A stretch of 64,000 nt of DNA from Thainema sp. (GTDB lineage Bacteria > Cyanobacteriota > Cyanobacteriia > Phormidesmidales > Phormidesmidaceae), in contig JBQLZK010000005.1 of NCBI GenBank assembly GCA_052168235.1, forward strand, positions 107,018 to 171,017, given 5' to 3'. The first letter of the stretch is position 1. Each line of letters starts with the position of its first letter. This document shows, in pieces, positions 16,575 to 37,757 of this stretch. The notes below the pieces were generated by a model. The model was not told the DNA's origin. It searched no databases and saw only the letters and a list, made by a program, of their open reading frames with translations. Made by a program: the position numbers and the translations under genes.

Positions 16575-16580
16575 ATCCAA

Positions 16581-16631
16581 CCCCAAAAGAGCCGTAGGCC
16601 GCCGTAACGGCGGCCTACGGCTCTTTTGGGG
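16581..16631. repeat. Perfect 25-bp-arm palindrome (probable bidirectional terminator)
   Basis: CCCCAAAAGAGCCGTAGGCCGCCGT-a-reverse complement, between convergent genes. Confidence 0.8.
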
Positions 16632-16667
16632 TCTCGTACGAAATCTGCTCATAAAAAACCAGTTCTC

Positions 16668-16710
16668 ATTTTGTGCAAAAGTCAGGCTGTGCCTGACTTT
16701 TGCACAAAAT
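16668..16710. repeat. Hairpin element, family H copy C (divergent)
   Basis: ATTTTGTGCAAAAGTCAGGC-tgt-GCCTGACTTTTGCACAAAAT. Confidence 0.6.
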
Positions 16711-20488: not shown

Positions 20489-21157
20489 GTGAAAATGATG
20501 AATGTGTCTGCTCAACCAGAATCCCAATCTATGGGCGATGCAACTGAGGCTTTAGTCATTCCTGAACTGATTGTAGGTTTGGGCAATCCAGGATCGAAAT
20601 ACGAAAATACCCGTCACAATGTTGGCTTTCAGGTAATTGATGCCTTGGCGAAACGGTGGCAGGTAAACTTATCCGAAAATCGTAAGTTTCAGGGCTGGTA
20701 TGGCGAAACGACGGTTGGCAGTCAGCGCAGTAAAGTTCGGTTGCTGAAGCCGACCACATATATGAATCGTTCCGGGCAGTCGGTTCGAGCCGTACTGGAC
20801 TGGTTCAAAGTTTCGCCTGCCAAGATCCTGGTGGTCTATGACGAGATGGATTTGCCGCTAGGTCGAATTCGGCTGCGTCTCTCGGGTTCAGCGGGGGGAC
20901 ACAACGGCATGAAGTCGATTATTTCCCATGTGAATACTCAGGAATTTCCCCGCCTGCGAATAGGCATTGGCTCACCCAAAGATGAGAATACAGTCACCAA
21001 AGATGCAGTCGGGCATGTGCTAGGCCAATTTTCCAAAGACGAACAGCCAATTTTGTCAGAAGTGCTGTATTTGGCTCAAGACAGCATTGAGCTGAGCCTC
21101 AAACAGGGCGTAGAAAAAAGCATGAGTCTCTACAACGGTCGAGCGGTTGAGATTTAG
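20489..21157 (+). CDS. pth: Peptidyl-tRNA hydrolase
   Basis: VGLGNPG, TRHNVGF, KPTTYMN, GGHNG; start may be downstream. Confidence 0.96.
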   Translation: MKMMNVSAQPESQSMGDATEALVIPELIVGLGNPGSKYENTRHNVGFQVIDALAKRWQVNLSENRKFQGWYGETTVGSQRSKVRLLKPTTYMNRSGQSVRAVLDWFKVSPAKILVVYDEMDLPLGRIRLRLSGSAGGHNGMKSIISHVNTQEFPRLRIGIGSPKDENTVTKDAVGHVLGQFSKDEQPILSEVLYLAQDSIELSLKQGVEKSMSLYNGRAVEI

Positions 21158-21172
21158 AGCATTCTCAAGCAT

Positions 21173-22909
21173 CTAGAAACCCAAGTCCGCTTTGGCTGAT
21201 TCCGCTGCTTTGAATACGGCAGCGGTCGGCATTTCTTCCCAAGCCGTATCGCCAATTTCGGCATAGAAGCTTTCGTCATAGGGACGAGTCCGCACCACTA
21301 CAGGCATCGGGACCGCGTGACCCAGAATCAGTGCTTGCTGTTTGGAATCTAACTTGGCCAGCACCGATCGTAAACTTTGGCTGCCTGCAACTCCGGTAAA
21401 AATTGCGTCAATATCTTTCTCGTCATTCAGCAATGCCGTAATTCGCGTGCCGACTTGGGACATCACTTCATTATCAATTCCAGAGGGTCGCTGATCGACA
21501 ACGAGCAAGGTGACAAAGTACTTGCGCATTTCTCGCGCAATCGTGCCGAAAATCGTTTGCCGAGCGGTCGCCGGATCGAGAAAGCGGTGGGCTTCTTCAA
21601 TCGTGATCATGAGCTGACGGGGGCGATCGCAAATATTTTTGGTTTGCAAAAACTTCTCAGCTTTACGCACATAGCTGGCGTGAATTCGCCGCGCAATCAC
21701 ATTGGTTGCTAGCATGTAAGACAGCATGTTGGACTGAGAGCCAAATTCCACTACGACATGCTTCCCTGCATCGATCGCTTCGAGAATCTGGCCGATGTAA
21801 TTATGAGGACAGGTGTTGCGGGTGTACTTCAAATCATCAAGTCGCGTCAGCTTGCGTTGAAGCGCCATAATCGATGACTTGCTGCCCATCTTCGTTTCAC
21901 AAAACTCCTGAATTTCCTCATTGTTGAGGGTCAGTAGCCGCGAAATCCAAGATTTGCCAAATTCGTTACGCAGGATAATGGCATTTTCTAAGCTGGCCTC
22001 AGAAAGATTCAGTTCTCCCCGCACCAGCATCAGATCCTCCACGTCAATTTGGTCATAGCTGATGTAAAGCTCTTGGGCATCCCGGACGCCCCGCCGCTTC
22101 GTCGATTCCGGGTCGAGCGTAAAAATCTGCACCTGTCCCGGAAAGAGCTGCCGCAGTCCTTTGACCGTGCTGAACTGCTTGCCCTCACTGGCCGCTTCCC
22201 AGCCATATTCCGAGTGCATATCAAAAATCAGATTTACCGCCGCCTGTTTGCGAATCACGCCGGATAGCAACAGACGCGTCAGAAAAGATTTTCCCGTACC
22301 CGACTTACCGAAAATGCCGTTGCTGCGCTCTACAAACCGATCGAGGTCAATACAAATCGGCACGTCCATATCAATCGGTTTGCCAATGGAAAAATTGCGC
22401 CGATGGGGGTCGTCTTCCCAGCCGAATACGACGCGGAAATCTCGCTCAGAGGCATCATAGACCTGGCTAAAGTGACTTGGAATCGTCTTGACAGGCAGCA
22501 GCTCGACAGGTTCACTACTCTGAGCTTGATATGATCCAGCCTGAGCCTTCGTTGAATGGGATTTGGATTGATTACTAGAAGAATCGCGCGACTTGTCCTG
22601 GTGGTGCTGGGTCTGAGGCGTAAACATCAGCATGGGCGACAGCGCAATCGTGCCGTAGGTGCCGGAACCGGCTAAGACTTCCTGCAAAAACAGATTATCA
22701 GGATCGGGCGGATTGGCGATAATTCGCTGGCTTGAAGTGCCGAGCGTGACGTCGGTAAGCATGCAGAAAAAGCGCGATCGCATCCCCTGCACGACCAGAA
22801 ACTTGCCTACCCGCATTTCTTCCACCGAGACATCAGCGTGTAGACGTACCTCTAGACCTTGGCTGAGAGAACCTTGAATGACAGAACCCAGCGGCTTTTC
22901 TAAATCCAT
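21173..22909 (-). CDS. HerA/DUF87 family ATPase
   Basis: HAS-barrel-like N-terminus, GKSGTGKS, FDMHSEY, IEEAHRF, AREMRK, DQRPS. Confidence 0.88.
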   Translation of the reverse strand: MDLEKPLGSVIQGSLSQGLEVRLHADVSVEEMRVGKFLVVQGMRSRFFCMLTDVTLGTSSQRIIANPPDPDNLFLQEVLAGSGTYGTIALSPMLMFTPQTQHHQDKSRDSSSNQSKSHSTKAQAGSYQAQSSEPVELLPVKTIPSHFSQVYDASERDFRVVFGWEDDPHRRNFSIGKPIDMDVPICIDLDRFVERSNGIFGKSGTGKSFLTRLLLSGVIRKQAAVNLIFDMHSEYGWEAASEGKQFSTVKGLRQLFPGQVQIFTLDPESTKRRGVRDAQELYISYDQIDVEDLMLVRGELNLSEASLENAIILRNEFGKSWISRLLTLNNEEIQEFCETKMGSKSSIMALQRKLTRLDDLKYTRNTCPHNYIGQILEAIDAGKHVVVEFGSQSNMLSYMLATNVIARRIHASYVRKAEKFLQTKNICDRPRQLMITIEEAHRFLDPATARQTIFGTIAREMRKYFVTLLVVDQRPSGIDNEVMSQVGTRITALLNDEKDIDAIFTGVAGSQSLRSVLAKLDSKQQALILGHAVPMPVVVRTRPYDESFYAEIGDTAWEEMPTAAVFKAAESAKADLGF

Positions 22910-23049: not shown

Positions 23050-23143
23050 ATAGTCTGTAAGTTAAGTTTTGATGGTTGATGTGCCGCGCGGAGCGCGGCA
23101 CATCAACCATCAAAACTCATTAAAACTAAAGTTGACAGACCAT
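23050..23143. repeat. MITE-like palindromic element
   Basis: 25-bp perfect arms 23065-23117; imperfect TIR ATAGTCTGTAA / TGACAGACCAT. Confidence 0.7.
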
Positions 23144-23916: not shown

Positions 23917-24114
23917 CTAGCGCAGTGCAGTTGCATTGAAATCATTCCGAATTAAACGTTCTAAGCTTGCAACCTGTAGACCACGACTCCGGCGGTGACT
24001 GAGATCGCTGGGTAAATCCGGCATTTCCTGCCAGCAGTGGGAGCAAAACCAGTAAACATCAGCGCCACGTGCATGACGGAGGAGAGAGTTAGAGCAGCAT
24101 GGACATGTTGTCAT
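23917..24114 (-). CDS. Small zinc-ribbon protein
   Basis: CPCC...LLRH...YWFCSHCWQEMP. Confidence 0.7.
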   Translation of the reverse strand: MTTCPCCSNSLLRHARGADVYWFCSHCWQEMPDLPSDLSHRRSRGLQVASLERLIRNDFNATALR

Positions 24115-24590
24115 CTTTTATTATTTCAACCTGATACTGTTGCTTAGGTGAGTTTGGAGGTAGAGAAGTCTATCGTTCAATTGATTGTTCAGTTGACTGC
24201 TTATAGAGATTTAGAGAGAACAAATCAGACTTGAATTTCTAAAGCTTTCTTCGAAGACATTCGCGTTCTTTATATAAGGTCTCAAACTTACCCTTAAACT
24301 ACAACCTGATAAATACCCGGATCAATAGGGAACTCCCCCCTTACTAAATGTAAAGCGCCTCTGTGATCATGCGGATAAACCCATTAAAAAATGTATATTG
24401 TAGCCATAAACACAATTTATTTTTAATAGTAGATTATAAGTTTTTATTCTATTCAGCCAGAAACAATAAGTACTTGTAACCCTTTAACAAAAAGAGTTTC
24501 AGCACAATCAGCGTCTCACGAATTTGTGACATTTGTTCAATCGGCTAGCTCGCATCAAGAAAATGAACCACAATTGCAATAAATATTTTT

Positions 24591-24604
24591 GTATCGCAGT
24601 TTAC
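24591..24604. promoter_or_regulatory. Candidate NtcA-type site
   Basis: GTA-TCGCAGTT-TAC (GTA-N8-TAC) in an AT-rich divergent intergenic region. Confidence 0.35.
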
Positions 24605-25047
24605 GTCTTTTGACAGATGTTTTTCTTATCTAGAAAAAGCTTTTACTAACTTTTTAGTAACTGTTGATTAGAGCTGTATTGATGGAGTTTACTTACTTAT
24701 TTATTTACTTTTATGACTTTATTCGATTTAGCTTACTCATCTAGCCCAACTGCCCATCTAAGTAACCTTTGTAACCCAGCAAAAATCCTCTCTAGGAAGA
24801 TGGGCGAATCTTTTCATCGCTCATCGCGAAACCTGAGTCTACGTTGGAGTTGACCTTCGATTCATACTCCACACGGCTGATGGGCTTTATTGCAGCAAAC
24901 GAGATAGCTGATGTCTCAACTAACCCTTTAAGTGCAATATAAGTCCAGTGGGTAATACCGAATTTTGACCGTAATCATGTCTATCTGTGTTGTATCTAGA
25001 ATTTAGTTAGATGCACAGCCCATATTCAACGAGGGTAGAAACCATAT

Positions 25048-25296
25048 ATGGCACAGCTTAAACGGTGGGAATCGCCCCGCCGCAAAGGACGGAACCGCAA
25101 AGGTCGAGGCGGTTCAGCGCGGCAGCGACAGTTAATCAAGCGACAAAAGCAGTTGCAGAAGAAGCTGAAGCAGCAAACTGACCGAGATTCATCAAACCAA
25201 GGCTCAACCCAAAATCCAAGCTCAAAGCGAAAGGCGAGAACCGAGTTCTCGCCTTTCGCTTTGAGCTTGGATTTTGAATCTGTAACTAGACTTTAG
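25048..25296 (+). CDS. Small highly basic protein, candidate alternative ribosome-rescue factor
   Basis: GAGG RBS; R/K-rich N-terminal half; last codons cross a 32-bp hairpin; function is inference. Confidence 0.65.
25210..25276. terminator. 32-bp perfect hairpin inside the ORF 3' end and downstream of cysC
   Basis: CAAAATCCAAGCTCAAAGCGAAAGGCGAGAAC-cga-exact reverse complement. Confidence 0.75.
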
Positions 25297-25837
25297 ACAT
25301 CGCTGGAAGATAGCCCATCTCTTCTAGTTTGGATAGTACCTTGCCCACACTTTCTTCCAGGGTTTCTTCATGAGTTCTGCAGTTGACCTCTGGGTTGGTG
25401 GGTGGCTCGTAGGGATCATCGATACCTGTGAACTGCTTGATTTCTCCAGCCCGTGCCCGCTTATAGAGTCCTTTGACATCTCGCTCTTCACAAACTTCTA
25501 GAGGAGCACTAACGTAGACTTCCATGAAATCGCCAACTCGCGCTCGGACTTCTTCACGGATTGCACGGTAGGGCGAAATCGCAGACACTAATACGATGAC
25601 ACCGTTGCGGGTGAGTAGATGCGAAACAAAGCCAATGCGGCGAATGTTTTCATCCCGGTCTTCTTTGCTGAACCCCAAACCTTTGGTGAGGTTGGTGCGG
25701 ACGATGTCGCCGTCTAAAACCTCTAGTTTGCAATTGCGCGATCGCAACTCTTCAGCCAGTGCCTCGGTAATTGTGCTTTTGCCTGCGCCGCTAAGACCTG
25801 TGAACCAAATCGTTACGCCACGGTGTTCTTGACTCAT
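25286..25837 (-). CDS. cysC: Adenylyl-sulfate kinase
   Basis: [40 protein letters not shown]. Confidence 0.96.
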
Positions 25838-26082
25838 AAATCGCGTCCTCTTGTGTAATGACGGGCCGAGAGCGTTCAAATCACTCCTGAGCCACTTTAC
25901 TTCCTTTTGTAAACCTACGTTAATGTTGCCCCACTGAAAAGATAAACATCAACAGAGGTTGGGCTGTGCTTCACTTAATCTTTGACTTTGAGCTGCTTTA
26001 AGCTAGCTAAATTTACGTTGCCCTAAATTTGGGCAAATTTAACATGAGTCGCCTAATTGGCGTCATCTCATTGCACCAAATC

Positions 26083-35692: not shown

Positions 35693-37714
35693 ATGAATGA
35701 CACTATCCTCGACGTTCGCCATCTCACGGTTGACTTCCAGACTGATGAACGCCTGGTTCGGGCGGTCGATGATGTTTCATTTCAGGTTAAACGGGGACAA
35801 ACCGTTGGCATCGTAGGCGAATCCGGTTCAGGCAAATCGGTCACGTCTCTGGCGGTAATGGGGCTGGTGCCAAATCCACCGGGACGAGTAACGAGTGGCG
35901 AAATCTGGTTCAAAGGGCTGGAAGCCGAGGGCAATGCCATCGATCTGCTGAAGCTGCCGTCTGAAGATATGCAAAAGTTTCGCGGCGGTCAGATCTCCAT
36001 GATTTTTCAGGAACCGATGAGTTCGCTGAATCCGGTCTATACCTGTGGTTATCAGCTCGCTGAGGCGATTCAACTGCATCAGGATGTAGGCAAATCGGAA
36101 GCTCGCCGCAAAGCGATCGCACTTTTACAAGAGGTGCAGTTAATCCAATCCGACGATGAGCTGTGGAAGCAGCACTTGATTGAGCGGAACTTAGTCAACA
36201 TTGCCGATGTGGATGAAAGTTTCAGTGCTGAACCGACTGCGCCAGTGGATCCGTTCGAAACTTCCGTACAAGTTGTCGAATCCGATCGCTTACAAGTCGC
36301 AATTGATCGGTTAAGCGATCGCGATCGTACCGAAATCCAGCAAGAAATTAATCGCTACAAGCAATCGTTTCTAGATCGCTATCCCCATGAGCTATCGGGG
36401 GGACAAATTCAGCGGGTGATGATCGCCATGTCGATCTCCTGCAATCCCTCGCTGCTGATTGCCGATGAGCCGACCACGGCGCTGGATGTGACCGTGCAGG
36501 CCCGCATTTTGGACTTGATGCGAGAATTGCGCGATCGCAGAGGCATGTCCCTCATGTTCATCACTCACGACCTCAGTATTGTGGCCGAAATTGCTGACAT
36601 GGTGGTGGTGATGTACCAGGGTAAAATCGTCGAGTACGGCACCGTTTGGGATATCTTCTCCAACCCTCAGCACCCCTATACCAAAGGGCTACTGGCCTGC
36701 CGCCCTCAGCCGGATAAGCGCTTGCGCTATCTGCCCACCATTGCCGACTTTATGGAAGAGGTGGAAACGCCCACGGGGAAAATCCAAATCCAAGAGCGCC
36801 AAATCTCGGTAGCCGAGGCGGAAAAACTCAACGATCCGATTTCCGAAGCCGAAACGCGCCAGCGTCTAGAAGAACTCAAAAAGCGCGAACCGCTGGTGCG
36901 AGTGGAAGATTTCAAAGTAGCCTTCCCCGTACGTGGCTTGTTTGGGCAGGCCAAGCGCCACATCATGGCCGTCGATGGCGTGTCGTTCCAGGTAAATCGC
37001 GGTGAGACGCTGGGACTGGTGGGCGAATCCGGCTGCGGCAAAACTACGCTGTCTCGCGCCTTACTAAAGCTGGTGCGACCGTCCGGTGGCCGAGTCTGGT
37101 TTGAAGGACGAGAAGTCACCAACGTCAGCGGACGGGCGCTGCGGCAACTGCGGCGCGATATGCAAATCATTTTCCAAGATCCATTTAGCTCTCTCGATCC
37201 GCGCATGACCGTTGGTGCAGCCATCATGGAGCCACTGCGGATTCACGGTGTCGGTAAAAGCAAGCGCAACCGTAAAGAACGCACCGCTTATTTACTGGAG
37301 CGGGTCGGGCTAAACCCAAACTGCATGAATCGCTACCCCCACGAGTTTTCCGGCGGTCAGCGGCAGCGAATTTGTGTGGCGCGAGCCTTGGCGCTCAATC
37401 CCAAATTTATTATCTGCGACGAATCCGTATCAGCTCTAGACGTATCAGTGCAGGCCCAGGTACTCAACTTGCTGAAAGAACTCCAGCAGGAGTTTGACCT
37501 CACCTATATCTTCATCTCTCACGATCTGAGCGTCGTCGAATTCATGAGCGATCGCATTATGGTGATGAACGATGGCAAGATTGAGGAAACTGGCCCCGCA
37601 GGCGAGATTTACTATCATCCCAGCCAGCCCTATACGCAACGGCTGATTGCCTCCATTCCAGTCGGCAGTTTAGAGCGCATCAAAGAACAGCAGATGGGCC
37701 GCATGGTGAGCTAA
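35693..37714 (+). CDS. Peptide/nickel ABC transporter double-ATPase subunit
   Basis: Two NBDs ([16 protein letters not shown]), two YPHE-SGGQ motifs, HPYT motif. Confidence 0.93.
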
Positions 37715-37757
37715 TCGAAGTATGTGCTGCCGCGACGCGGCAGCACATACTTCGATT
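37713..37757. repeat. Perfect 22-bp-arm palindrome
   Basis: AATCGAAGTATGTGCTGCCGCG-a-reverse complement. Confidence 0.75.

Follow-up and report, generated by a model that had tools for sequence, protein, structure and literature searches.

Why should a small open reading frame (ORF) for a strongly basic protein carry, inside its coding sequence and just ahead of its stop codon, a long and perfect hairpin? The locus that raises this question lies in a stretch of 64,000 nucleotides of cyanobacterial DNA, the whole of which is called the window below, and a preliminary description of it proposed that a ribosome rescue factor in the manner of ArfA and BrfA is made here from non-stop mRNA. The answer depends on whether the ORF is a gene, on whether its transcripts would end before the stop codon, and on what the encoded protein may do.

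The ORF occupies positions 25048..25296 of the forward strand and consists of 82 codons and a TAG, with an ATG start and a Shine-Dalgarno-like GAGGG on the same strand (25031-25035), 12 nt 5′ of the ATG. Codons 1-41 (25048..25170) form a conserved domain, made of a basic unstructured stretch and then a basic helix, and codons 42-54 (25171..25209) form a variable polar linker, in which neither sequence nor length is conserved among relatives. The hairpin follows, and a short tail ending in the TAG (25277..25296) closes the frame; domain, linker and tail are read on the forward strand. The ribosome-binding site and the very basic N-terminus pointed out in the preliminary description are both present, the latter with 17 Lys/Arg against 2 Asp/Glu in residues 1-45. 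AlphaFold2, run on an 81-row alignment, models a single helix (residues 22-49) and no strand, with block-mean pLDDT values of 82 for residues 21-30 and 95 for residues 31-40; both ends around the helix are low-confidence and unstructured, and the mean pLDDT is 67. No family in Pfam, the ArfA profile included, and none in NCBIfam matched the small protein at E<=1, and a profile search of all PDB chains at E<=10 returned Nop14 as the sole match (E 0.92) and no ArfA or BrfA chain, so that the echo of an ArfA motif suggested earlier finds no backing in these searches.

Judged by its conservation, this ORF is a real gene, belonging to an unnamed family that was found in this analysis only in cyanobacteria. 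A protein search returned 62 relatives of 60-123 aa, a profile search 2905 clusters at 90% identity (among 8000 candidates scored), and an exhaustive search 451 representatives at 50% identity, 391 of them with E<=1e-10; when a Nostocales member served as the query, 1539 relatives were found. Where one genome per species was searched, a relative was encoded in at least 494 stretches. All family records that bear an organism name are cyanobacterial, the record names among the matches listed are "hypothetical protein" except for three automatic JGI labels, and a search of the ESM Atlas returned unnamed cyanobacterial clusters only. The best 80 tblastn matches of these at least 494 (L001-L080) were taken for analysis at the DNA level and make up, together with the window, a set of 81 sequences. 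Their titles include Leptolyngbya, Phormidesmis, Phormidium, Oscillatoria, Spirulina, Chamaesiphon, Gomphosphaeria, a Microcystaceae genome and many Nostocales, for example Anabaena, Calothrix and Scytonema. Literature searches on cyanobacterial rescue factors, on in-coding terminators with trans-translation and on the motif string, which covered mainly open-access main texts, found no description of the family.

The pattern of conservation within the 81 sequences is that of a protein whose N-terminal part is under selection. Specifically, 17 columns are invariant and the first ~41 residues are almost fixed, with the motifs LKRWESPR and GRNxKGxGGSA in the conserved N-terminal domain. In 20 columns with one residue in at least 95% of sequences, the nucleotide entropy at codon positions 1, 2 and 3 is 0.20, 0.02 and 1.35 bits; synonymous sites are thus scrambled and the protein sequence is kept, and therefore selection acts on a protein. 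Beyond residue ~41, both sequence and length vary. A conserved basic N-terminus and a variable C-terminus had both been predicted for homologues, and both are found. A loosely defined purine motif lies 5′ of the start in 57 of the 81 members, and the 150 representatives listed (of 451) are 66-172 aa long, with the domain at or near the N-terminus.

The hairpin of the window was located by an inverted-repeat search and has two 32-nt arms (25210-25241 and 25245-25276), 100% complementary and separated by a 3-nt loop. It extends from codon 55 one base into codon 77 and ends 17 nt before the stop codon, which is the geometry that had been described at the outset. A short U tract, read from the sequence as TTTT (25272..25275, forward strand), lies at the 3′ end of the stem. 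The predicted folding energy is -59.6 kcal/mol on the forward strand and -65.8 kcal/mol on the reverse strand (z about -11), and none of 200 shuffles folds as well. Among 29 short-loop inverted repeats within the 64 kb this one is the longest, although other perfect hairpins of considerable length exist, of 26 bp (16580-16632), 25 bp (23065-23117), 23 bp (1805-1851), 22 bp (37713-37757), 20 bp (16668-16710) and 18 bp (160-198), all with A/T-rich outer ends. Because long perfect stems recur elsewhere in the genome, hairpin length alone is not unusual, and the distinctive feature of this hairpin is its position inside a conserved ORF. Many palindromes centred on GCGATCGC also occur in the window. 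A reading of the hairpin as a repeat element was ruled out, as its core is found only at this site in the window. In an Rfam search at E<=1, all matches were sub-threshold and concerned animal microRNA precursor models: the best reached 44 bits where the gathering score is 98, and the others were weaker. Models built on hairpins are taken to react in this way to long hairpins of any kind.

The closest relative of the window locus, L039, shares 87% nucleotide identity with it and also has a perfect hairpin, of 30 bp, in which the core is identical to that of the window and the outer stem has changed on both arms. Indels of 16 and 1 nt shift the frame of the core between the two loci, and therefore the encoded residues differ.

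In the rest of the family the structure is more conventional. The set was scanned with a finder that looks for a stem followed by a T-rich tract, from 100 nt past the motif to 200 nt past the stop. A hairpin with a T tract was flagged in 80 of the 81 sequences, and in 79 of these 80 both elements end ahead of the stop codon. The sole exception is L039, whose TAA overlaps the last hairpin base, and the one sequence missed by the finder, L013, has a bulged hairpin and T tract inside its ORF according to RNAfold; overall, 80 of 81 sequences thus have an in-ORF terminator made of a hairpin and a T tract. Stems have 8-32 pairs (median 12), T tracts mostly have 5-8 T per 8-nt window, and the hairpin begins 18-147 nt (median 39) after the K41 codon. 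By these features, the terminators of most relatives read as textbook examples, a GC-rich stem followed by a U tract. The window itself stands somewhat apart, with a stem well above the usual length and a U tract of just UUUU, which is part of the base-paired stem and weaker than the tracts of most relatives; a simple scan nevertheless lists it as terminator-like. The 32-bp hairpin is also a possible RNase III substrate, and since a long perfect duplex is combined here with only four U, the window form may rely on RNase III, as arfA can.

The position of these terminators is not what ordinary genes of the same loci display. As a control, 299 ORFs of at least 200 aa were examined for a terminator-like site within 120 nt of the stop, and 27 had one, 26 after the stop and 1 before it. 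Under identical criteria, the family has 66 before the stop, 0 after it and 15 without a site. Nor does the encoded peptide explain the conservation of the hairpin. The semi-conserved residues of the C-terminal part (Gly/Glu, then Pro and Phe-Phe) correspond to the purine-rich arm, the pyrimidine-rich arm and the T tract read in frame, and hairpin sequences are nearly all different (79 distinct in 80) and are read in all phases (27/34/19). On these comparisons, selection falls on the RNA structure and not on the peptide that it encodes. The preliminary description also predicted an in-ORF hairpin whatever the neighbouring gene, and this is what the 81 sequences show: in 43 of them the next ORF downstream has the same orientation, in 34 it is convergent, and 4 have none, and the terminator is kept in each arrangement.

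How far the frame itself is maintained can be read from the distribution of stop codons. The interval that starts where the conserved domain stops and runs through the T tract averages 72 nt. Within it, frame 0 has 0 stops in 1893 codons, whereas frame +1 has 25 in 1861 and frame +2 has 132 in 1846. In 80 of 80 sequences frame 0 stays open through the T tract, and none of them has an in-frame stop in the variable linker. Homologues with stop codons upstream of the hairpin, which had been named beforehand as a finding that would speak against a non-stop gene, were thus not seen in these 1893 codons. In the 150 nt past the T tract, stops per codon are 0.058 in frame 0 and 0.053 and 0.058 in the other frames. 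The mean distance from the T tract to the first stop is 18.2 codons, where the density predicts 17.8 (KS p 0.07), and this stop falls anywhere from 1 to 222 nt beyond the tract. These counts indicate that the frame is protected as far as the terminator and no further, and that the family gene has no selected stop codon; the post-hairpin tail and TAG of the window ORF are, by the same statistics, probably not selected as coding sequence. From such a gene a non-stop mRNA is expected, as for arfA and brfA. Predicted non-stop products have 57-102 residues (median 66), and a transcript ending at the U tract of the window would encode residues 1-76. In a wider protein sample, a short form was also sought: 427 of 429 proteins carry the motif and none ends less than 55 residues past the motif start. 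A loose peptide signature of a translated terminator is present in 418 of the 427, which is counted as weak evidence.

A model in which these features belong together can be outlined as follows. A terminator hairpin lies inside the frame, as a GC-rich stem and U tract in relatives and as a 32-bp stem with UUUU in the window, and the frame is kept open exactly to this terminator, with the first stop beyond it at random. Transcripts would then end at the hairpin by termination, and the long duplex of the window might in addition be cut by RNase III. Ribosomes would run to the 3′ end of the resulting non-stop mRNA, and tmRNA-SmpB would tag the product of ~57-102 residues (76 in the window) for degradation, so that, unless trans-translation were saturated or lost, the protein would not accumulate. 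If the analogy to ArfA and BrfA extends to function, the N-terminal ~41 conserved residues could associate with ribosomes in which the mRNA channel is empty and stimulate release of the peptide, probably through recruitment of a release factor, thus serving as a back-up for rescue. The parts of this model differ in strength. The comparative evidence for a terminator ahead of the stop codon strongly supports the non-stop interpretation put forward in the preliminary description, for which the transcript ends themselves are predicted from sequence, and a non-stop, tmRNA-gated design of the gene is considered highly probable. Ribosome rescue as the function of the protein, which is argued by analogy, is held only tentatively, as a proposal a little short of an even chance. 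The combination of both, a non-stop, tmRNA-gated gene whose product is a back-up ribosome rescue factor, is the best explanation of the whole locus, and it too stays just below the point at which it could be called probable.

The most serious alternative accepts the gene design and questions the protein. A non-stop, tmRNA-gated gene could instead encode a regulator that binds ribosomes or RNA, a factor of the hibernation type or a sensor of trans-translation capacity, and all of the evidence for the non-stop layout fits such a protein as well as it fits a rescue factor. No evidence connects the family protein with release factors or with the mRNA channel, its architecture is unlike that of ArfA and BrfA (the basic part is N-terminal and the Lys-His pair is missing), and other rescue routes are common in cyanobacteria (PMC11633108). 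On the other hand, the genes with such a layout that are named in the passages of PMC6881298 and PMC8012679 drawn upon here are rescue factors only, and a short, very basic and, in the model, mostly unstructured peptide would suit a binder of the ribosomal channel. A function other than rescue is regarded as the less likely reading.

More conservatively, the gene could be taken to encode an ordinary small basic protein with a leaky or regulatory internal terminator (an attenuator), whereby proteins are made in full length, with tails of arbitrary sequence, and tmRNA has no special part. Every ORF does, after all, meet a stop 1-222 nt past the T tract, the U tract of the window is short, and translation close behind RNA polymerase can suppress terminators, as a translating ribosome is described to do with a nearby terminator in the relevant part of PMC4824070. 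However, the position of that stop looks random and the tails are unconserved, and a canonical stem with 5-8 T is kept in nearly all relatives. Moreover, the next gene is convergent in 34 of the 81 sequences, and therefore there is nothing downstream to attenuate in those loci. An ordinary protein behind an attenuator is, on balance, improbable.

The preliminary description had itself named a further alternative, in which the hairpin is merely the terminator of the convergent cysC gene (or a bidirectional one) and its overlap with the ORF is accidental. This gene, for adenylyl-sulfate kinase (APS kinase), lies on the reverse strand at 25286..25879 (PF01583, E 2e-66; NF002059, E 6e-94); its last 11 nt lie within the small ORF, and the hairpin starts 9 nt after its stop codon. 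Both this proximity and the other long perfect hairpins of the genome speak for such a role, and the hairpin of the window probably does terminate cysC as well. As a full explanation it fails, since 80 of the 81 sequences have their terminator inside the ORF, 43 are followed by a same-strand gene, and cysC lies downstream in no more than 1 of 76 loci, namely L039, so that cysC termination cannot account for a family-wide hairpin. The other downstream genes come from widely varying families (WD40, MerR, WecG, MscL and many others), and an accidental overlap with a cysC terminator can be given very little credence.

On the upstream side, 38 of 80 loci have a tRNA-Leu(CAA) gene ahead of the small gene and in the same orientation (for example L012:3898-3979 and L044:3884-3967), and the gap from this tRNA to the ATG is at most 30 nt in 8 and at most 100 nt in 18 of the 38; co-transcription is implied by the short gap. 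An HtpX-like Peptidase_M48 is the upstream protein-coding neighbour in 33 of 78 loci. Neither is found upstream at the window site. A reading of the locus as chiefly the trailer and terminator of a tRNA-Leu(CAA) unit, with an incidental ORF, would suit the same-strand tRNA in 38 of 80 loci and the gaps of at most 30 nt in 8 of them, but it is scarcely credible in view of the strong purifying selection on the amino-acid sequence and of the 42 of 80 loci, and the window, that have no tRNA-Leu(CAA) upstream.

Several other features were recorded around the family members. The ribosomal protein L7/L12 gene (rplL) lies directly upstream on the same strand in L023, L025 and L030, and three Nostocales loci have a same-strand tRNA-Gln(TTG) 3′ of the small gene (L066:4287-4360, L074:801-874 and L075:4441-4513). 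A shared same-strand downstream gene of ~155-199 aa was seen in 14 loci (L003, L009, L010, L013, L017, L019, L022, L030, L033, L038, L043, L047, L049 and L071); in the two that were scanned, L003 and L017, it is weakly similar to REP-associated tyrosine transposases, below the curated cut-off, and its recurrence looks like clade synteny. Neither the window nor any of the 80 loci contains a tmRNA gene.

Within the window, a gene for peptidyl-tRNA hydrolase (pth, 20489-21154, forward strand) lies 3.9 kb upstream of the small gene, and a HerA-like ATPase gene with DUF87 and HAS-barrel domains (21173-22909, reverse strand) lies between the two; linkage to pth was considered and set aside, as pth and the HerA-like ATPase are common only to the near-identical L039. 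A Cys-rich ORF of 65 aa (23917-24114, reverse strand), 97% identical in L039 and matching no Pfam or NCBIfam family, is possibly a small zinc-ribbon protein. The ~930 nt immediately upstream of the small gene (24115-25047) contain no ORF of at least 60 aa and no Rfam match, and a simple scan of the forward strand of this interval found no promoter-like site.

If the proposed model of a tmRNA-gated rescue factor is correct, cyanobacteria gain a candidate rescue factor that is open to direct testing. A survey of 162 cyanobacterial genomes listed arfB in 90, rqcH in 161 and arfA in 0 (PMC11633108, Table 1), and it is in this group that the family described here is widespread. The gene could also serve as a natural reporter of trans-translation capacity in the cyanobacterial lineage. 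It is from this lineage that plastids derive. The signature of a terminator before the stop codon can be used to search genomes for tmRNA-gated genes, and a conserved gene without a selected stop codon is unusual even if its protein does something else.

To our knowledge, the known back-up rescue factors that depend on a release factor (RF) come from three narrow groups only, namely ArfA, BrfA and ArfT. The closest parallel to the family in gene layout is BrfA (YqkK) of Bacillus subtilis, an RF2-dependent factor. The small brfA gene contains a rho-independent terminator in its coding sequence, and the product of ~62 aa is SsrA-tagged and accumulates in an smpB mutant, as far as the relevant passages of PMC6881298 go; the corresponding median in the family is 66. 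Disruption of the brfA hairpin by synonymous changes is reported to remove the dependence of accumulation on the loss of tmRNA. Both BrfA and the family protein are basic, largely unstructured peptides. However, no sequence relation between them was detectable in the Pfam, NCBIfam and PDB profile searches, and BrfA is mainly confined to Bacillus, whereas the family is present in at least 494 species genomes, all named ones cyanobacterial. Their architecture is also different. In the portions of PMC6881298 used here, the basic extensions of ArfA, BrfA, SmpB and ArfB are C-terminal, that of ArfA and BrfA carries a Lys-His pair contacting 16S rRNA, and both recruit RF2 via a short strand added to the RF2 sheet. 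In the family the basic part is N-terminal, and a conserved Lys-His pair was sought in the 81 sequences and is absent; position 17 is His in 19 of the 81, ahead of the invariant K18, which gives the order His-Lys. The AlphaFold2 model of the peptide alone contains no strand for docking to RF2, an interaction that forms on the ribosome.

The arfA gene of Escherichia coli (PF03889) likewise has a stem-loop inside the ORF and upstream of the stop; this stem-loop leads to termination or RNase III cleavage, and ArfA is repressed by trans-translation, according to the parts of PMC8012679 consulted. Loss of ssrA makes arfA essential. For the family the layout is known at the DNA level, and the 32-bp duplex of the window resembles the RNase III route of ArfA more than the short terminators of its relatives do. 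ArfA nevertheless has no Pfam match to the family at E<=1, and architecture and taxon differ. The very small RF-dependent factor ArfT of Francisella tularensis, which works with RF1 or RF2, is described in the same part of PMC8012679 as unrelated in sequence to ArfA and BrfA, which shows that small RF-dependent rescue factors arose repeatedly, and this review expects more of them, beyond the reach of sequence similarity. A looser likeness exists to the C-terminal tails of SmpB and ArfB, which are Lys/Arg-rich, probe the empty mRNA channel (PMC6881298, in the passages available) and may be likened to the basic stretch of the family. These tails are attached to folded domains, and ArfB has a catalytic domain of its own, whereas the family protein is a stand-alone peptide without one.

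Given that there is no sequence relation and that the architecture differs, the family is not filed as a member of ArfA or BrfA. It has their gene layout and, by analogy, may do the same job. With somewhat more reserve than for the rescue function itself, it can be proposed as a fourth, independently evolved class of trans-translation-gated rescue factors and the first with a wide phylogenetic range, one that would be spread over several cyanobacterial orders, use an N-terminal basic probe, dispense with a selected stop codon and often form the trailer of a tRNA-Leu(CAA) gene.
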